A stretch of 64,000 nucleotides of DNA from positions 6,490 through 70,489 of the IMG/VR virus record IMGVR_UViG_3300022074_000025. One strand, given 5' to 3'. Positions within the stretch are counted from its first letter, which is position 1. Every line of letters begins with the position of its first letter. Both the position numbers and the translations under genes were made by a program. The notes below the pieces were generated by a model. That model worked only from the letters and a program-made list of their open reading frames with translations. It was not told where the DNA came from and ran no database searches. The DNA is from a virus. Shown piece after piece: positions 4,730-26,238 of this stretch.

Positions 4730-7700
4730 TAGCTTGCTTCTCCGATGCTTATACTATTAATTGAGTCTCCGCTATCAAGAGCTACTCTTACTAATACAAC
4801 ATTACCTGTAGCATTGGACATGTTTTCACTACCAAGTGTCATTGTGTATGTACTGTTGATACTTTGACCAAACGGTACCACGTCTGCACCTGTGCTTGCA
4901 CACCCATCACTTCCATTTCCTCCACTTCCAGTGTTACTGCCCGGAACGCCTGCACCTGCATATTGAGTACCAGTGTCCAACCAACCATTTAGGCCACTTG
5001 CACTATCAATACCTGTTCCTGGTGAAGCAATCCACATACCTGCAATACCTGTTGAAGAGTTAATAGCAATGTCGAAGTTTGCAACAACTTGTCTACGAAA
5101 CGCAAAGGTAAAATACTGTGTTCCAGTATCTCCGGATCTGTCTGGACCTGCAGGTAAGAAACCACTTGATAGGTTCGTTGTAAAGTGTTGTAAGAGACCC
5201 CACCTTATAGTTGCTTCCCTAGTTCCGCTTACCGAAACTGCGCCTGTAAATGTGTTGTTAGTATAGAAGTTAGTACTTCCAGTGAATGATGGTGTATCAG
5301 TTGTTTCACTTAAGAAATCTGCAATACGTACTCCGTCGTCAGTGAAGTTGCCGTTTCCTAACGAATTCGCTACGGGTATTGCTGTTTCAGATACACCGCT
5401 AGGACTTGCTGTGTGTACTTGTACTTTTGTTCCTGCAATTTCTTGATAAGAACTTGTACCTACTACGTTGCTAATCCTAAACTTTAAAGTCTCAACAGTA
5501 GAAACTGAGCTACCTGTAAGACTTAAACTTATATCTCCTAGTGCATATGGGCTACTGACATCCTTACCTGTATTGGCATTTGGTATGCCTCCTGTAAGGA
5601 ATGGTGTAGTACCTTCTATATCTGAATAACTTTTATTTTGTGTATTCACAGCAGATTGTGATCTGCCTTCTGAGTTTGTACCACTTGCAATCTCGAATAT
5701 GCTAGTTGAATTTCTGTATGCCTGGCCGATCCAATTATAGACTTCAGCACCACCTATTGTTAAAGTAGGACTGCCTGAATTATAATATGGAATACCAGAA
5801 ATATATCTATATGTTCCTGCGTTGTTTTCTGTAAGAGTTGCACCAGTTAAATCTAATGTTGGTGAAGTTGTTATATCATCTCTTACAATGGTTACATAGT
5901 TTGTGTTACCAGTTGTTGAATGTTCTATACGAGCATCATTAACACCAACAGGTAAACCTGATAGTGTTTTTGCAATTCTGGAATCAAACGTTTGATAAAA
6001 ACCTGTTGGATATGTTGAACTGCTAACTGTATCGTTTGCATCTCTCTGATCGCTTACTACCAATGCATTATTTGTTCCATTTTCATTTAATGCTGTAGTA
6101 AATGATTGTGAGCCATCTGTTGTACCATTAATATTAACACTTACAGTTCCTGATGTACCATCATAAGCATTTCCTGCTGTGGTACTATCAATAGTGCCTG
6201 TATTTGCATAGCGTCTAACTGTACTTTGATTTAAATTTGCGCCTGCTGATACTGGATTTGTTGCACTATTATCGGTAAATCCATGTGCAAGATAAGGTGA
6301 GCTACCTTCAGCACTATCACTTAGTTGGATAGTTTTTGAACTTAATCCTGATGGAGCACTTGGTACAGCGTTTACTTGAAATACAAGACTATCTGTATCT
6401 GTCTGTGCAGTAATGTCTGGAGTACCATTTGCTGTAAAATTAAGTGTATAATTGCCAGGAGTTACTCCTGTAAAATCATGTGTTATTATTTGGTTAATAG
6501 TACCTGGACTTGTTCCATCTTCTGTTACTGTATCATTTGTACTACCGTCATTCCAATTATACACATAGTCGTCTGCATTTTGTGTGCTATTAGTAACTTG
6601 TACTAAAGCATGATTTACACCATCATATGTTGTACCATCATATACATCAAACTGATTATCGCCTGATCTATCACTTACTCTAGTTGCTGTGCCTGAAATT
6701 GAGGCACGTACATCTGGCTCCAAATGCACTGTAAAGTTTGTTGTAGTAAACGGGCTATTTGCATGATCTGTTATAAGTTGTAAATTACCTGTATAGTCTC
6801 TTGGTGTACCATTTGCTTGTTCACTATTTGTAAGTTGATATCTATGTGTAATTGTACGTCCATGATCTCCGTTTGAATTTGAGCCTGCGTTTACGTATTG
6901 TGTATCGCCATCTCCAAACGTATACAGATATCTATTGCCATATGTTGAATAACTTCCTACTGTATTTTCTGTATTATTTGTAAATGTAACAGTCAATCCA
7001 CTTCCTGACTGTTCGTTAATTCCTGTAGTTAAATTAAGAGCAACTTCTGGGGTGTGGTCATCATAAATTTTATAAACAGCATCATCATCTGTTGGTGTGG
7101 TTCCTGGTGTTGCTGTTGTATGACTATCAAGTGTTAGTGTAACGGTTCTTTGCACTTCTTGTTCTGTGCTAAGAGCAAACGTGTGAGCTAAACGTCCTCC
7201 GCCGACACCGCCTGCTACACTATCAGAGCTAATTACGTCATCAGATGATCCATCGCCCCATTCCCAAGTATATTGGATAGTTGCACCACTTGTATTTGTG
7301 GTTGTATTTTCAAAATAAATTGTATCGCCATCGTCCCATTGAGTAATTGGCGAACCTCCTGTTGGTGCGGAATAAGCCGCAAAACTAACAACAGGTGTTG
7401 CTGTAAAGATTGTAACAAAGGCAGTTTTTTCTTCGCTTGCTGTACTACCTGTACCAGCACCTGAATTATTAAAAGCCTCAACATTTACTGTAAATGGAGA
7501 GCCAGTGTTACTTGAATATGTATGTGTTGGAGTGCTATCTGATGTTGCTGTATCGGTTGTGCCATCGCCCCAGTCAATTGTATATCTATTTGCGTTACCT
7601 ACAGCAGAAATATTTAATGTTACTGCTAAACCAGCACCACCAACAAGTGGTGAACCAGTAAAGTCTACTTCTTTTACAAAAGTATTGTTGCGAATATTTT

Positions 7701-12616: not shown

Positions 12617-12646
12617 TTTAAATCTCCTTATAGGTTATAACACTTA

Positions 12647-12653
12647 TATTTAA
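12647..12653 (-). promoter_or_regulatory. Probable late promoter (TTAAATA) for the head operon
   Basis: TAAATA core about 30 nt upstream of the 12616 start. Confidence 0.5.
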
Positions 12654-12726
12654 GATGTCTTACTTCAGAGTAATAGTTAATGCGAATAAAACCGCATTTT
12701 TAATAAAATACTGAATTATTTCGGTA

Positions 12727-12945
12727 TTATTCTGCAGAACCAGTATTAGCAGAGTACATTTGTTTGTAGTTGCCAACTTGTTCTATATGATCAGCTTTTG
12801 CCATTTCACGCATAGCTCTCATTTTATTTAGATGTTCTAGCGTTAATTTAGGGCGTCTAGTATCATCAAGTTCCCACTTATGACTCTCATCACCCTCTGC
12901 TGTCTGTGCTAGTTCATTAAACCTCATCATCACCTCCCGGATCAT
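12727..12945 (-). CDS. Small head-module protein (true start probably 12927 or 12930)
   Basis: DTRRPKLTLEHLNKMR motif; GGAGG SD overlaps the end of the portal gene. Confidence 0.65.
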   Translation of the reverse strand: MIREVMMRFNELAQTAEGDESHKWELDDTRRPKLTLEHLNKMRAMREMAKADHIEQVGNYKQMYSANTGSAE

Positions 12946-19930: not shown

Positions 19931-19979
19931 TATTTAATGCATAAATACAAATGGATGCATTTATATATAATGTATTTAT
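19931..19979. promoter_or_regulatory. Divergent late-promoter region
   Basis: TTAAATA (minus, 19931-19937), ATAAATA (plus, 19941-19947) and ATAAATA (minus, 19973-19979). Confidence 0.6.
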
Positions 19980-19995
19980 TTGGAGAAAACACCCT

Positions 19996-20844
19996 ATGAC
20001 AGCGAATCCCTTAATTGCGGCATATAAAAAGCCCGCATTATACGTTGCCTTACCCAGTAAGGGTAAATGGTACGATCCTAAACCAAAATTAAGTGTAGAT
20101 GGCGAACTTGCTGTGTATGCTATGAGTGCAAGAGATGAATTAATTACTAAAACACCTGATGCACTGTTTAATGGCGAGGCTACAGTGGCACTAATTGAAA
20201 GTTGTTGCCCTGATATTCCTGAGCCAAGACAGATGCCAGTGAATGATCTATTAGTTGTATTATTGGCTATTAGACAAGCAAGTTATGGTAATGAACTATC
20301 AATTGACATTAAATGTACAAATGAAGAGTGTAGACATGTTAATCAGATGGCAGTAGACGGTAACATACTGTTAAGCCGTGTACAGGATAACAAGCACGAA
20401 ACATTAATTAAACTTGAAAATGGTTTTGGATTAGAACTTACTCCGTACACTATCGAAGATAGGACTAGATTACAGATACAGCAGGTAAAACAACAGGCTA
20501 TTGTACAACAATTAATTAATGCTGAAGCATCAGGCGAAGAAGACTTACAGGAACAATTTGGTAAAACATTTGTGGAAGTTGCAGAGCTAAGTGTTGAGCT
20601 AGTTGCACGTTGTATTAGCACAGTTCATTTACCTGATAAAGATTCAGATCCTATTACAGAATACCAAGATATTTACGATTGGTTAAAAATTATCACAAAG
20701 AAAGACTATGATCAAATACGTGAGCGTGTTGAACAACTTAGTGAAAACAACATTGACACCATAATGGATGCCCAATGTGCAGAATGTGGTAAGCCTTTTA
20801 AAACTAATATTGAGTTAGATATCGCGGGTTTTTTCGCAGGTTGA
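19996..20844 (+). CDS. Baseplate hub/tail assembly protein (T4 gp26-like); start likely ATG 19996
   Basis: NPL...LPSKGKWY, MSARDE, LLAIRQASYG and two Cys pairs (CTNEEC, CAEC); GGAGA SD before MTANPL. Confidence 0.75.
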   Translation: MTANPLIAAYKKPALYVALPSKGKWYDPKPKLSVDGELAVYAMSARDELITKTPDALFNGEATVALIESCCPDIPEPRQMPVNDLLVVLLAIRQASYGNELSIDIKCTNEECRHVNQMAVDGNILLSRVQDNKHETLIKLENGFGLELTPYTIEDRTRLQIQQVKQQAIVQQLINAEASGEEDLQEQFGKTFVEVAELSVELVARCISTVHLPDKDSDPITEYQDIYDWLKIITKKDYDQIRERVEQLSENNIDTIMDAQCAECGKPFKTNIELDIAGFFAG

Positions 20845-21080
20845 TAGCCACTAGTCAGCCGACGGAGATTAAACAAATTGTTGAACGTTATGATTTAGAA
20901 CGTGAGGGCATTGAAGCAAACCTATTAGATTTAGTTTTGTATAGTGGAGGTGCTACTACATGGACAGAGCTTATGTGCATGCCAATTTCCTCTGTCAGAT
21001 TGATGACTGAAAGAATGAATAAAAAGACTGAAGAAGCAAACATGGCACAACAAAAGGCTAGGGCTTCTCGAGGCCGGTAA
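20841..21080 (+). CDS. gp51-like small protein, possibly expressed as a -1 frameshift extension of the gp26-like gene
   Basis: TWTELMCMP motif; TTG start without a clear SD; lies in the -1 frame behind a G GGT TTT TTC slippery run. Confidence 0.6.
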   Translation: MIATSQPTEIKQIVERYDLEREGIEANLLDLVLYSGGATTWTELMCMPISSVRLMTERMNKKTEEANMAQQKARASRGR

Positions 21081-21510
21081 TTAATTTGTAATATTCTGCA
21101 GGCCAGCTATTATAATAATTTGTGCTATGTAAATAATCACGCTTATCTAGAATGTCTTTTTTCAACTGTATAAAAATACAATTAGTAAAATTCCTAACAA
21201 AATGTCCTGACTTATTTGTGCTTGTAAAGAAGAACAGATCGGAAAATTCCTTCTGCATGTCCTCTGCTAAAGCCTCAAGATCGTAAGACAATTCACCATC
21301 ACCCATCCAAGCAATACCTATTTCATAACGTTCTCTATCAAACGTTCTAAGCATTTCCTTTTGATTTGAACGGGCATCAATGAACTGGATTAGATCCATC
21401 ATTCTTGCTCTACGTGCAAAGGGACATATAGGGAAACCGTCATCTTTCTTCGCTTCCACCTCTTTCTCTGTCCAGATCAGAAAGGTGCTTACGAATGTAT
21501 CGAAGTTCAT
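21058..21510 (-). CDS. Hypothetical protein with CPFAR motif (DUF1415-like)
   Basis: 150-aa ORF with ICPFARRAR; fills the gap, convergent with the gp51-like gene. Confidence 0.6.
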   Translation of the reverse strand: MNFDTFVSTFLIWTEKEVEAKKDDGFPICPFARRARMMDLIQFIDARSNQKEMLRTFDRERYEIGIAWMGDGELSYDLEALAEDMQKEFSDLFFFTSTNKSGHFVRNFTNCIFIQLKKDILDKRDYLHSTNYYNSWPAEYYKLITGLEKP

Positions 21511-21639
21511 AATATTTCTTTCAGTGTTATTAACAGATGTTCTTCAAACATCACATCTTCATATCACTTCGTGATATTCGATGTATATTTCGAATCGGTT
21601 AATATATCTATTGTGGTTATAGTTATTTATCGACTAATA

Positions 21640-21977
21640 TTATAACGGCTTTTTCGCCGAGTGTTTCATTCACACTTAGCCTGATACGGCCAAGTGTGAA
21701 AAATGAATACAAGGTTTTTCGCCTCGGAATCACCCACATTATCATAGTAAAACCTTATTATAGGGAGTCGCGGTTATGCGATACGACTTTACTCACTGCT
21801 GAACAACGCAGAAACATCCTTTGCCATGATAACGACTAAGGACTATCCGTGAGTTCCAATCTGTCAGGAGAGCTCACTCATTGTTTAAATTATGCACGCC
21901 AGAATCTGAACACAGGTGTCTGTGAACTCAAAGCGGATCGAGCCATCCCGATCAAACTGAGCATGTAGGGTTCTGTA
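21640..21977 (-). ncRNA. Candidate large structured non-coding RNA, ~330 nt
   Basis: No ORF, GC-richer than the flanking intergenic DNA, at least nine helices. Three helices contain G.U pairs that exist only on the minus-strand transcript. A pseudoknot is possible. Confidence 0.7.
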
Positions 21978-22403
21978 TTAGCCGTTAAGTTGTTGTTTGA
22001 TTATGCCTTTGCCGTGTACTTTTACTTGAATAATGCCATTGTAGTAGTCGTTTGATTCTAGTACTTTTCTTGAGAATTGTTCACGTGCCTCTAGGTAACT
22101 ACATTCTGATTTGGAGTTACAATAATATAATATTTCTCGGGTAAATTTGTCTGTGCCTAATTGTTCTACGTCTGTGTTTAATTCATCATTTGAGCCATAG
22201 TAAGTTTGCCAATCTGATTCTACTTTATATCGTCTTTTGTTTTTTCTGCCTTTGAGTGGTGGTCTTGATCTGCTAAATCTTGCCAGTTTTTTGCCTATGT
22301 ATTTTCTATCATTTGTAGTATTGGTTATTAAGTAGACAAAGCCTACACATTCTTCTGGGAGTTCCAATACTTCTTTGCCATTGTAAAGCCAATTATTCGC
22401 CAA
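21978..22403 (-). CDS. Minimal GIY-YIG family endonuclease, 141 aa
   Basis: GFVYLITN...KYIGKK, YYGS, FTREIL, LEAREQ and YYN motifs. Confidence 0.85.
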   Translation of the reverse strand: MANNWLYNGKEVLELPEECVGFVYLITNTTNDRKYIGKKLARFSRSRPPLKGRKNKRRYKVESDWQTYYGSNDELNTDVEQLGTDKFTREILYYCNSKSECSYLEAREQFSRKVLESNDYYNGIIQVKVHGKGIIKQQLNG

Positions 22404-22617
22404 AACTTCTTTTTAATTCCTGTATCATATCAATCCCTAACTCCTGTTTAACTTTCCTACTATCGTAGTCAGGAGTTTTTACAAACAAATCTTCCTCAGG
22501 CATGCTGAGTGTGATTGTGCTTGGAGCCATTGATACAGAAGGGATTGTAACTGTATCATATGTACCTAATGTAACATCATTTGTATTGATTGAGATGTAA
22601 TCGTCATCATCATGCAT
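22393..22617 (-). CDS. Hypothetical protein, 74 aa
   Basis: Overlaps both neighbours in an operon-like way. Confidence 0.5.
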   Translation of the reverse strand: MHDDDDYISINTNDVTLGTYDTVTIPSVSMAPSTITLSMPEEDLFVKTPDYDSRKVKQELGIDMIQELKRSFGE

Positions 22618-24379
22618 CTACTATCTCTACCTCTGTGTTAAACGTTGTAAAGCCGTTTTCTTTTGTAACCTGTAGTACACTATTAACACGACCAACAAGT
22701 TCATCACGATGAGAGATAAGCAGAATATTTTTATGTCTATCACGTTCCATCTTCTTCAATACACCTAACGCACTTTCAACGCCAATGGTATCCATACCAC
22801 TGTCAACTAGTTCGTCAATACATACAAGATTAATAGGATGATTCATACTTTCAAATACATCACGGAATGCCCAACTAAGTCCTAATATAAGTCTGTTGCG
22901 TTCACCACGTGATAAGTTGTCAAAATCTAAATCCTGTCCTAACTGTACAATACTAACTGTTAAGTCACTTTGGAACTGCACCTCATGTGGCAGTCCTAGT
23001 CTAGTTATATAGTACTCAAGACGTGTGTTTAAAAACTGTAGATTTTGTTCAATAATACGTCTACGAATAAAACTGTCTTTGCTGGTTAGTAGTTTTAACA
23101 AAAAGTCCTGATGATCTTTCAGTTCTGTTAATCTGTTAGCTTCTGTCCAGTCTATGTTTTGTAAGCCAGTTTCTTTTAAACTTTGTATTTGATCCTCGTA
23201 AGGATCATCTGCATTCTCTTTTTCTTGAATACTGCTTTCTAACGCTCCTAGTTTTGTTTGATGCTCGTATGCTTCACTTAATGTATCGTAGTGTAGTGTA
23301 GGGGCATCGCCCAATTCACCTAGTTCATTTAAGGCGCTCTTATATTCATTTAGCATTTCGCTCTCAGAAGCAAGATGCCTTACCGATTCTTCTACTAATT
23401 CTGTCTTTTGAGCAATCATTTTCTCATGTTGCTCGTCATGAATCTCTTGTCCACATGCATAACACTTATGATCTAGTGTAGTATCCAAGTCTGCTTGTGC
23501 TTTGTCTTTACGTTTTTGTTCACGTTGAATGCTTGTGTCTAGTCTAGCAATTTCACTATTAAGTGTTTCAATTTGTGTACGTTTGTTATTAAATTCTTCA
23601 AACAATGCATGTGCTTGTATTTCAGCATCAATATCTACTTGTTGTAGTGTAAGTAAGTCTGTCTGTAAGTCCTTGATATCATTGACTTTTTTATCAGCCC
23701 ATACTTTTTTACGTCTTTCCATATCTTTAATACTATTTGCAATGCGTTCATTTGCTTCCTCATTAGCACGGATACGGTGTGTTTCTTCTTGTATTGCGTC
23801 TTTTGTGTTACGTACACGCTCTTTAAGTATTTCAGCCTTTTCACTAAGTTGTGTAATACCCAGTAGTTGCTCAATCATATCCTTCTGATCGTTTGCCCTC
23901 ATACTTAGGAAAGGTTCTGTGTATGTATTAAGTGCAACAATATGTTTGAACATGTTGTGCGTCATACCAAGTATATTCTCAATTACTGCTTGGCTTTCTC
24001 TACCTTCACCCTGCATTTCATCTGTGTTTGCTTGATCAGTATTATTAACCATGAACTTAAACACATTGGGTTTACGTCCACGTTCAATTTTATATGCTAT
24101 ACCATCTTTCTCAAAGTCAACAGTAACCATCATTTGTTTGTTGTTGGTTTTGTTTACCAAGTTATCTTTACGAATATTATATAGTGCATTGCCATATAAC
24201 GCATAACTTAATGCGTTAATGATTGTTGTTTTTCCTGTGCCATTACGAGATCCATCACCACCCAGATCCATATTATTACCTAACACAAGTGTCAGTCCAG
24301 CATGATCAAATGTTACAGCCTGTGTAACATTACCCACACTCATAAAGTTTTTTACAGTGATATTTTTTATGTTTAGCAT
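22610..24379 (-). CDS. gp46: Recombination ATPase, Rad50/SbcC-like (T4 gp46)
   Basis: Walker A NGTGKTT, zinc hook CYAC, signature LSRGE, Walker B CIDE, ISH. Confidence 0.95.
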   Translation of the reverse strand: MLNIKNITVKNFMSVGNVTQAVTFDHAGLTLVLGNNMDLGGDGSRNGTGKTTIINALSYALYGNALYNIRKDNLVNKTNNKQMMVTVDFEKDGIAYKIERGRKPNVFKFMVNNTDQANTDEMQGEGRESQAVIENILGMTHNMFKHIVALNTYTEPFLSMRANDQKDMIEQLLGITQLSEKAEILKERVRNTKDAIQEETHRIRANEEANERIANSIKDMERRKKVWADKKVNDIKDLQTDLLTLQQVDIDAEIQAHALFEEFNNKRTQIETLNSEIARLDTSIQREQKRKDKAQADLDTTLDHKCYACGQEIHDEQHEKMIAQKTELVEESVRHLASESEMLNEYKSALNELGELGDAPTLHYDTLSEAYEHQTKLGALESSIQEKENADDPYEDQIQSLKETGLQNIDWTEANRLTELKDHQDFLLKLLTSKDSFIRRRIIEQNLQFLNTRLEYYITRLGLPHEVQFQSDLTVSIVQLGQDLDFDNLSRGERNRLILGLSWAFRDVFESMNHPINLVCIDELVDSGMDTIGVESALGVLKKMERDRHKNILLISHRDELVGRVNSVLQVTKENGFTTFNTEVEIVDA

Positions 24380-25401: not shown

Positions 25402-26238
25402 TTATTCCTTATTTGGGTTTGTGGCTTGCCTTGCTTCCCACTCTGCATTAAATGTTCGTGTAAAACTAGGGTTAAGTCCTTCTTCTTCTAATAAGTCGTC
25501 TCTGATGTTTTGATTACGTTTTTCTAAATTGAGAACACGGGTAAAACTGTTATTAACAGCCGCCGTATAATATGCAAATGGGTTTTGACTCTTAGCTTCG
25601 TTAAATTGTAATCCAATTTGACTTAACTGAAGAATAGCCTGCCCACGCATCTCATCCACATACGTATATCCACGCCAGTTACCACGCATACTGTATCTAT
25701 GGCATAGCATTAGATACATTTTTGCTAACTTATCGTTTGTCTTACCATGTGTAACACAGAAATGACCATCTGTCAAGTCTCCTTTCCAGTGGCTCCGTAC
25801 TACTTCTTTCCAGTTATTACCAACAAGTGCATAATGCTTAAATGGTGGGAAGTTTACCTTTGTATGGTGATCTGCCTCGGTTTTGGGTGTGTTCTTCCTA
25901 TCTTCTCTAGGAATATGTTCATATGTATTGACTCTCATTACAAGTTCTTTTTCAGTAATTGTATTAGGGTCAATAGCAAATTCAGCGGCTCTTGGTTTAC
26001 GTTTTTTATCCCATAATCCCTTCTCCCACTGTAATACTGCTTCTTCATGTGCTAATTTTTGTAATCTTGATGCTCTATTCTGTTTTGCTTCTTCAATTCT
26101 ATCGTTTGTTATTTCTTCAACATTATCTAATATTAAATCATAAAAATAATAATTGTCATCATCACAGTAGCAATAGGTCATCTTAGACTTGTGTATTTCT
26201 AACAACATGTCTCTATTGTTTAGGTAATTTCTTGCCAT
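25402..26238 (-). CDS. gp55: Late-transcription sigma factor (T4 gp55 family)
   Basis: NYLNNRD N-terminus and NWRGYTYVDEM...FNEAKSQNPFAYYT...NSF; adjacent to gp47/gp46. Confidence 0.88.
   Translation of the reverse strand: MARNYLNNRDMLLEIHKSKMTYCYCDDDNYYFYDLILDNVEEITNDRIEEAKQNRASRLQKLAHEEAVLQWEKGLWDKKRKPRAAEFAIDPNTITEKELVMRVNTYEHIPREDRKNTPKTEADHHTKVNFPPFKHYALVGNNWKEVVRSHWKGDLTDGHFCVTHGKTNDKLAKMYLMLCHRYSMRGNWRGYTYVDEMRGQAILQLSQIGLQFNEAKSQNPFAYYTAAVNNSFTRVLNLEKRNQNIRDDLLEEEGLNPSFTRTFNAEWEARQATNPNKE

Follow-up and report, generated by a model that had tools for sequence, protein, structure and literature searches.

A pseudoknotted RNA downstream of gp46 and a small nuclease gene in uncultured giant T4-like phages

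The DNA analyzed here, a stretch of 64,000 nucleotides (nt) that we call the window, spans positions 6,490 to 70,489 of IMG/VR virus record IMGVR_UViG_3300022074_000025, a 70.5-kb viral contig with an estimated completeness of 19%. Its minus strand carries, in order, a gp46-like gene, an open reading frame (ORF) of 74 amino acids (aa), the gene for a small GIY-YIG nuclease, an ORF-free gap, and orf150. The minus strand of the gap encodes a real structured RNA of ~300 nt (~21647-21963) that includes at least one pseudoknot. An earlier note on this DNA, made from its letters alone, had proposed that the RNA and the nuclease form a ribonucleoprotein (RNP), and the relationship between the two is the second subject of this report. 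The features of the locus, numbered from the first letter of the window, are:

22610..24379, minus strand: gp46-like recombination nuclease/ATPase subunit, 589 aa (Pfam AAA_23, E 1.2e-10, and SMC_N); conserved upstream anchor
22393..22617, minus strand: small ORF of 74 aa (orf74), poorly conserved and absent from many relatives
21978..22403, minus strand: stand-alone GIY-YIG nuclease, 141 aa, consisting of a SegE-type catalytic domain only (PF19835), in an exchangeable slot
21511-21977, RNA encoded on the minus strand: ORF-free gap of 467 nt, the largest stretch without an ORF of at least 90 aa
21536..21577, minus strand: two short conserved hairpins (21561-77 and 21536-52) before orf150, with compensatory changes seen by eye in a ten-sequence alignment
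21058..21510, minus strand: orf150, a conserved hypothetical protein of 150 aa, the usual but not universal downstream neighbor

As the earlier note had observed, the largest ORF-free gap of the window begins at the GIY-YIG stop codon; the runner-up (12617-12916) measures 300 nt. G+C content is 0.42-0.46 inside the gap vs. ~0.35 around it. When the minus strand of 21620-21980 was folded, its energy was -110.8 kcal/mol (z -4.30) and none of 100 shuffled sequences folded as well, while the plus strand gave a z of -1.77 and was equaled by 5 of 100 shuffles. No tRNA or tmRNA (transfer-messenger RNA) was found by searching the window. Homologues were recovered from 16 loci with the gap sequence alone, and when ten sequences were aligned, the conserved core gave way to a variable, A/T-rich spacer and then two small hairpins; in the window, the spacer (21578-21646) parts the RNA from the hairpins proximal to orf150. 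A pattern made from the most conserved hairpin returned at least 115 IMG/VR stretches, and nhmmer located the RNA in 101 of 207 loci examined; a broader profile brought the number to 132, and four iterations brought it to 159. The RNA is thus common to hundreds of related phages, and it occurs as a single copy in its own genome. Cultured GenBank phages yielded nothing meaningful to blastn with the window RNA (E <= 1e-5 and E <= 10), nor with two RNAs of a second type described below. A pattern scan of 185,579 species genomes gave two matches (an actinomycete and a metagenome-assembled genome of Bifidobacterium), which is about the number expected by chance from a hand estimate.

The earlier note had called for a check of covariation among homologues, and this check bore out its claim of a folded RNA. 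Our main alignment contained 31 homologues, each <95% identical to the others. RNAalifold predicted 52 pairs in this set, 29 of them with compensatory changes. A structure curated by hand from a covariation scan comprised 66 pairs in 13 helices; 95.3% of its 2043 cells were paired, and 35 of the 66 pairs were changed on both sides. Its covariation score was 0.381, compared to 0.06-0.09 when pairing partners were slid by 1-3 columns, and none of 500 shuffles scored as high. Since the homologues retain many conserved G-U pairs, the RNA is assigned to the minus strand, i.e., the strand of the nuclease gene, where the earlier note had also placed it on the basis of G-U pairs. From 5' to 3' along the RNA, the elements are as follows, where "changed" refers to pairs altered on both sides:

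21893..21963, minus strand: 5' domain, a three-way junction of P0, Pa and Pb enclosing the variable hairpin Pc, supported by covariation
21961-63/21893-95, minus strand: P0, 2 of 3 pairs changed
21947-53/21936-42, minus strand: Pa, 4 of 7 pairs changed
21932-35/21897-900, minus strand: Pb, 2 of 4 pairs changed
21911-24, minus strand: Pc, variable hairpin, 4 of 5 pairs changed, 74.5% paired, in a poorly aligned region
21873-77/21849-53, minus strand: Pd, 4 of 5 pairs changed, 100% of cells paired
21867-69/21855-57, minus strand: Pe, inside Pd, with an invariant GCUCU, 2 of 3 pairs changed, 100% paired
21811..21848, minus strand: Pf/Pg stem (21846-48/21811-13 and 21841-43/21816-18), 5 of 6 pairs changed
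21825-31 (5' strand, in the Pf/Pg loop) with 21740-46 (3' strand), minus strand: PLR, the pseudoknot helix, 6 of 7 pairs changed
21808-10/21797-99, minus strand: Pi, hairpin, conserved and invariant
21783-88/21766-71, minus strand: Pj, hairpin with a conserved 11-nt loop, 3 of 6 pairs changed, 98.9% paired
21804-07 with 21773-76, minus strand: candidate loop-loop contact, weakly supported, 96.8% paired, 1 of 4 pairs changed, 2 invariant
21789-92/21747-50, minus strand: Pm, 88.7% paired
21710..21726, minus strand: small hairpin with twin word 1, then a U-rich run; the sole terminator-like site flagged by a consensus scan
21671..21698, minus strand: Pl, the most conserved hairpin (CACACUUGGCC / GGCUAAGUGUG), 97.9% paired, 2 pairs changed and 6 altered on one side
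21647..21660, minus strand: small hairpin with twin word 2 (word copy of 21715-23), the probable 3' edge of the RNA

Most of the helices drawn from the single sequence reappear in this structure. Those at 21936-53 and 21849-53/21873-77 covary as drawn (Pa and Pd), and three others stand with covariation after small adjustments: 21766-70/21784-88 as 21766-71/21783-88 (Pj), 21817-21/21838-42 as 21816-18/21841-43 (part of the Pf/Pg stem), and the long hairpin 21662-21711 as 21671-98 (Pl). The proposed long-range helix 21739-45/21826-32 was recovered as 21740-46/21825-31, and it crosses the stem at 21811-48 as the predicted pseudoknot requires; since six of its seven pairs change on both sides, the pseudoknot is real. 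Two hairpins fared less evenly. The one placed at 21796-99/21808-11 is conserved as 21797-99/21808-10 but is invariant and shows no covariation, whereas that at 21911-24 varies on both sides in most of its pairs but is incompletely paired and lies where the alignment is poor. A closing helix (21733-39/21963-69) was not conserved, with 51.7% of cells paired among the 31 homologues.

The size of the RNA, its pseudoknot, the possible loop-loop contact and the conserved unpaired nucleotides recall large ribozymes, and the RNA adjoins a homing-type nuclease gene. These features might be explained if the RNA were catalytic, either as a degenerate group I-like intron with a homing endonuclease or as a new class of self-processing or trans-acting ribozyme. 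However, there was no match to any group I, group II, RNase P or small-ribozyme model (E <= 10 for the window; E <= 5 for ten relatives), and no split host gene is evident, as the flanking genes are complete and orf74, which has no match in Pfam or PHROG, is either missing (L040, L065, L078 and L054) or not conserved (close relatives show 34-45% identity). We consider a catalytic RNA of this kind very unlikely. A group I intron with a homing ORF in particular was rejected, given that Intron_gpI was not matched at the same two thresholds and that the flanking ORFs are complete, separate genes, and likenesses to RNase P or group I introns in sequence motifs were set aside since no Rfam model supports either. 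Contigs from RNA libraries (see below) display no joints or skipped segments but are too shallow to count as evidence. ROOL, GOLLD, raiA and OLE are large orphan structured RNAs, partly phage-borne, that were found by comparative genomics. The window RNA is like them in being large and intricately folded; unlike them, it is smaller (~300-400 nt), is fixed in place behind gp46, and matched none of them in sequence or structure in Rfam 15.

By direct search, the RNA belongs to no named family, as the earlier note had supposed. The window was without any match to Rfam at the gathering threshold, and covariance models run on 21400-22700 at E <= 10 gave only three eukaryotic chance matches (Pinc, snoU30 and PVT1_3). 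Polynucleobacter-1 (RF01718) was not among them; the window lies below its gathering cut-off (37 bits) and by score is not a member. Nevertheless, RF01718 was present right behind the GIY gene in two of ten relatives scanned at E <= 5, and in 18 of 20 further loci scanned at the gathering threshold. At E <= 5 it was not found in the window-type or intermediate loci L085, L054, L105, L162, L026, L077, L006 and L020. All 20 loci whose RNA fit only the 3' part of our profile carried RF01718, compared to none of 10 others, with scores of 63-118 bits. In each of the 20, the motif sat on the GIY-YIG strand downstream of the GIY-YIG gene and ended 33-90 nt upstream of the 3'-part match, on the same strand. 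A scan of 20 loci without an RNA match, or with weak matches on the opposite strand or at a distance, detected no RF01718. RNAs of the RF01718 branch are therefore ~370-470 nt long; the 141-nt Rfam motif forms their 5' domain, and the remainder, a 3' domain of ~230 nt, can be aligned to the window RNA starting at Pd or Pf. Both branches have in common Pi, Pj, the loop-to-strand pseudoknot, a GUG segment, the twin words and Pl, which is nearly letter-for-letter alike in RF01718-type RNAs. The pseudoknot helix covaries in these RNAs as well (columns 245-251 with 396-403).

Iterated nhmmer connects the 3' cores of the two branches. A profile built from the 3' parts of the RF01718 branch only found 27 of the 31 window-type RNAs at E < 0.01, and its best match in the window itself (21668-21784) was borderline (E 0.014, filters off), while a full-length profile of that branch gave no match to the window under default filters. 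Since the direct match is borderline and the full-length profile returned nothing, the link rests on intermediates, shared architecture and context. Taken together, the comparison of sequences indicates that the window RNA is a divergent branch of a bigger family, the other branch of which has RF01718 as its 5' domain, and that the two share a 3' core absent from current models. The RNAs are alike in their place downstream of gp46 and a small GIY-YIG gene, on the strand of these genes, in related uncultured T4-like phages. They are unlike in that the 5' domain of the window RNA is a different three-way junction, and the 141-nt Rfam model covers none of the shared 3' core. Polynucleobacter-1 is listed for Burkholderiales from fresh water or estuary and marked probably cis-regulatory ("cis-reg? 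y") in the table of Weinberg et al. (2010; PMC2864571). Measured against that entry, the window RNA differs as a marine giant-phage RNA that is seemingly autonomous.

Two sets of loci touch on the limits of this family. In six GIY loci (L043, L047, L056, L066, L041 and L045), ORF-free gaps of 420-900 nt lie beside the nuclease gene and match neither the RNA profile nor Rfam; they may hold still more divergent branches. L002/L003, L010 and L011 have a divergent RNA copy close to where the examined DNA ends, ~2.7-2.9 kb away from the GIY gene and on the strand opposite to it; in L002/L003 a 181-aa ORF of unchecked family stands between the two.

The cis-regulatory entry for RF01718 in the table of PMC2864571 raises the question of whether the RNA acts in cis, as the 3' end of a gp47-gp46-nuclease message (a stabilizer, processing site or terminator complex) or as the leader of a downstream gene. 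In keeping with this, the RNA is always downstream of gp46 on the gp46 strand and holds a hairpin plus U-run at 21710-26. However, a terminator or stabilizer needs far less than an RNA of ~300 nt in which 13 helices covary, a pseudoknot forms and loops are conserved, and a simple hairpin-plus-U terminator test was passed by only 4 of 31 homologues, on which ground the internal terminator at 21710-26 was rejected. The downstream gene, moreover, is variable or convergent: orf150, ORFs of 209-217 aa, or orf79 on the other strand may follow. No orf150 lies downstream of the RNA in L105, L112, L192 and L175, other ORFs take its place in L026 and L019, and it occurs without the RNA in L088-L092. The variable A/T-rich spacer and the separate small hairpins also stand between the RNA and orf150. 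A cis-acting role is therefore doubtful in our estimation. The gene product of orf150 had no match in a Pfam search; the hairpins before it (21561-77 and 21536-52) may be a translational operator or a processing site for orf150.

Pieces of the locus were present in four RNA-library runs from four studies (Logan contigs covering 21524-21763, 21863-22264, 22069-22573, 22278-22428 and 22564-22700 at a depth of 2-6). These contigs show presence of the locus only and give no strand, ends or level, and carry-over of DNA is possible. One of them (21863-22057) runs across the GIY stop codon into the RNA. The word CTAAYAYA was not enriched in the window (19 matches vs. 20 expected), and neither was TATAAATA, which we take to be the T4 late-promoter word (4 vs. 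8.6 expected); on these counts, neither word is put forward as a promoter. In many relatives, CTAAYAYA occurs in 3-5 tandem copies, spaced by ~11 nt, between nuclease and RNA (e.g., L084:2501-2560, L040:3433-3560); the window has a single copy in this interval, at 21974-21981, overlapping the GIY stop codon.

A further feature of the RNA is a repeated word. As the earlier note had pointed out for a loop motif, GGCGAAAAA is present twice, at 21715-23 and 21650-58, in the small hairpins that flank Pl. The two sites share a word of 5-9 letters in all 51 sequences compared (31 window-type and 20 RF01718-type), and of at least 6 letters in 50. Since the word varies between phages yet matches within each RNA, the two copies change in step. 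A partner for the word inside the RNA was sought, and even the best alignment bin showed complementarity in no more than 6 of 30 sequences. That the two words pair mutually was rejected by a hand check, since such pairing is confined to wobble and A-A pairs in one branch and fails altogether in the window. The simplest idea is perhaps an external reader with two-fold character, for instance a protein dimer or a nucleic-acid site that is itself repeated. The word is alike in loci with different nucleases, e.g., L065 and L093, a point that bears on the nuclease gene to which we now turn.

The 141-aa protein matches PF19835 (SegE_GIY-YIG) with an E of 2.2e-36 (residues 5-125, profile positions 1-123) and spans phrog_447, a 148-position profile, end to end (E 5.4e-41). 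The claim that it is a GIY-YIG protein without a DNA-binding module agrees with these matches; no separate DNA-binding domain was found with Pfam or PHROG, longer fused relatives in large protein databases not having been sought. The Arg/Lys-rich "insert" of the earlier note, on the other hand, is a basic stretch inside the PF19835 match and is conserved in 64 homologues. A VYL...YIGKK block and later Glu- and Asn-containing blocks are conserved in the same number, and we take these, in line with a review, to hold the catalytic residues. No relative of the protein was found in the PDB by phmmer. With PADLOC, the nuclease gave only a weak "homing endonuclease" match, and a match to UzuA (E 0.0019 over 16 residues) was taken as chance.

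To relate nuclease and RNA, loci were picked by RNA pattern alone; a second sample was drawn with a pattern for the Pj hairpin of the RF01718 branch (at least 120 IMG/VR stretches), and neither was de-duplicated. Among the matches listed in the first sample, 82 of 82 loci have a small nuclease ORF directly upstream of the RNA and in its orientation (71 GIY-YIG and 11 with a 181-aa ORF), 14 others with <900 nt of context having been set aside. In the second sample, 115 of 116 new loci among the matches listed carry the RNA, and a GIY gene is upstream in 93 of the 93 with enough context (22 had too little). Such constancy favors a functional partnership, with an RNA that binds, guides, regulates or neutralizes the nuclease, be it within an RNP, as an antitoxin or by control of nuclease expression in cis. 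In the same direction point the nuclease being a bare catalytic domain and the RNA-library contig that crosses the GIY stop into the RNA. However, wherever at least 4500 nt upstream of the RNA were available, they included a gp46 homologue on the RNA strand (82 of 82 loci, again among the matches listed). Since gp46 is as constant a neighbor as the nuclease, gp46-nuclease-RNA is a conserved gene order.

Several observations speak against the partnership more directly. In most loci the slot upstream of the RNA is occupied by a GIY-YIG gene, and in the others by a PD-(D/E)XK gene unrelated to it, with clean breakpoints and a nearly unchanged RNA. The replacement ORF of 181 aa matches PF24608 (PDDEXK_15, E 3.4e-24) and phrog_244, and its fold is unrelated to GIY-YIG. 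L165 (GIY) and L100 (PD-(D/E)XK), for instance, are 88.6% identical over 2044 nt on the gp46 side and 88.3% identical over 1060 nt that start 29 nt ahead of the RNA; the block of ~530 nt without similarity between them is exactly the nuclease ORF. In one subgroup (L004/L005, L006, L013 and L014), the GIY gene is opposite to the RNA strand, with the RNA ~150 nt from the GIY start, while gp46 retains the orientation of the RNA. In L015/L016, a 273-aa ORF is inserted between nuclease and RNA.

Divergence of the three elements leads to the same view. Among 64 loci, pairwise identity of the RNA correlated with that of gp46 (Spearman 0.77) better than with that of GIY (0.38; GIY-gp46, 0.39), the pairs not being independent. 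The window's own locus (L001) has no full gp46 and was outside this comparison. Relative to the window, L002-L006 have GIY proteins that are 74-76% identical and gp46 proteins that are 47-50% identical, vs. 65% and 73%, respectively, for L054. A GIY homologue also lies behind nrdB in the cultured phage Melnitz, where there is no such RNA. As noted above, the twin word is the same in GIY (L065) and PD-(D/E)XK (L093) loci. A variable guide segment, which the earlier note had advised looking for, was not seen in unstructured form, since the variable parts of the RNA are hairpins that retain pairing. The RNA also lacks tandem repeats and a HEARO or other Rfam match. A type III toxin-antitoxin system was rejected accordingly: Tandem Repeats Finder detected no array in the RNA, only a weak 13-nt repeat of 2.2 copies at 21550-77, outside the RNA core, and the protein has a domain of the GIY-YIG DNA-nuclease type.

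Comparison with RNA-guided nucleases is instructive in this regard. As in the OMEGA/HEARO (IscB-omegaRNA, TnpB) and CRISPR systems, a nuclease gene adjoins a large structured RNA on the same strand. Unlike in those systems, the fold is GIY-YIG or PD-(D/E)XK, neither being RuvC/HNH; there is no Rfam match and no guide segment, the RNA is unchanged when the nuclease is swapped, and RNA and nuclease correlate at only 0.38. Because the nuclease family is swapped, the gene is inverted and RNA divergence tracks gp46, an RNA-guided or RNP reading is not supported, and we regard a functional partnership as unlikely. The fallback offered in the earlier note, that of an independent RNA, fits best, given an RNA that diverges with gp46 and survives replacement of its neighbor.

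In our judgment, the locus is best read as an autonomous backbone RNA gene adjoining a homing-type nuclease cassette, to which we assign a probability of roughly 55%. The comparisons show the RNA to be an autonomous gene that belongs to the backbone of a large group of uncultured giant T4-like phages, in which it invariably follows gp46 in the same orientation. The small nuclease would be an exchangeable, homing-endonuclease-like cassette that settled at the junction of two conserved genes, and nuclease and RNA would be linked genetically and selfishly, or simply by synteny, without forming a complex. As a speculation, the RNA is probably trans-acting and perhaps displays its two same-word hairpins, on either side of Pl, to a two-fold reader.

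Classical free-standing homing genes have a sporadic distribution. The nuclease gene of the window resembles the seg/mob genes of T4 in being small, GIY-YIG in type (as seg genes are), free-standing between conserved genes and in the orientation of its neighbors, and its slot shows cassette-like exchange and phylogenetic incongruence. It is unlike them in that Seg proteins have C-terminal DNA-binding modules while the 141-aa protein has none, and in that its distribution is universal among the matches listed rather than sporadic. According to the review PMC2988022, free-standing GIY-YIG seg genes sit between conserved genes, and segB of T4 is flanked on either side by a tRNA gene and targets the tRNA intergenic region. 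Like segB, the window gene adjoins a structured RNA gene, which for segB is a tRNA.

Some results weigh against an autonomous RNA beside a homing cassette. The slot is always filled (175 of 175 loci among the matches listed), and no empty site was found. The 141-aa nuclease lacks a DNA-binding domain, unlike characterized Seg enzymes, and site-specific homing is therefore unproven; together with the lack of an empty site, this leaves the cassette part of the reading unsettled. The contig that bridges GIY and RNA fits co-transcription equally well, and the RNA-library contigs are shallow. Finally, when the window is compared directly to the RF01718 branch, the similarity is borderline (E 0.014) and depends on intermediates. 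It is possible that the nuclease has a domesticated role or a looser functional tie to the RNA. A bolder alternative, which we consider quite unlikely, is that the RNA represents a new class of large RNA (a ribozyme or an RNP scaffold) within the gp46/gp47 recombination-replication module that grips a two-fold partner with its loop words, and that the nuclease, of either fold, is constant either to provide a DNA break that the RNA locus requires close by or because it is held in check by the RNA. If true, RNA and nuclease would be related in a way that is so far undescribed.

Other parts of the window bear on its surroundings. An ORF of 297 aa (orf297; 19951-20844, plus strand), convergent with the RNA block, is a homologue of a T4 baseplate protein (PF12322, E 3.4e-15), which places the RNA at the border of a recombination block and a structural block. 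A 278-aa ORF (25402-26238, minus strand), labeled gp55 in the earlier note, had EFP as its best Pfam match (E 0.082, not significant), and the label is unverified. Both strands of the ORF-poor stretch at 12617-12916 fold better than shuffled sequences (z -3.8 and -2.9). The stretch includes hairpins followed by U-runs and shares part of its length with a 72-aa ORF (12727-12945, minus strand); it resembles an ordinary intergenic region with terminators between convergent genes.

As to the significance of these results, RF01718, listed in 2010 as a 141-nt probable cis-regulator, proves to be the first third of one branch of a family of pseudoknotted phage RNAs of ~300-400 nt, and the window represents another branch, whose 5' domain differs and which goes wholly undetected by current models. 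Since pattern scans of IMG/VR gave at least 115 and at least 120 stretches, the family is abundant in uncultured giant T4-like phages. Its locus offers a clean natural case of two unrelated nuclease families competing for one intergenic slot, and it cautions that a nuclease beside a structured RNA need not be an RNA-guided system. Large, strongly conserved RNAs of such complexity have often proved to be ribozymes or RNP cores. Given this precedent and its fixed place in the recombination block, the RNA is a good target for work on structure and function.

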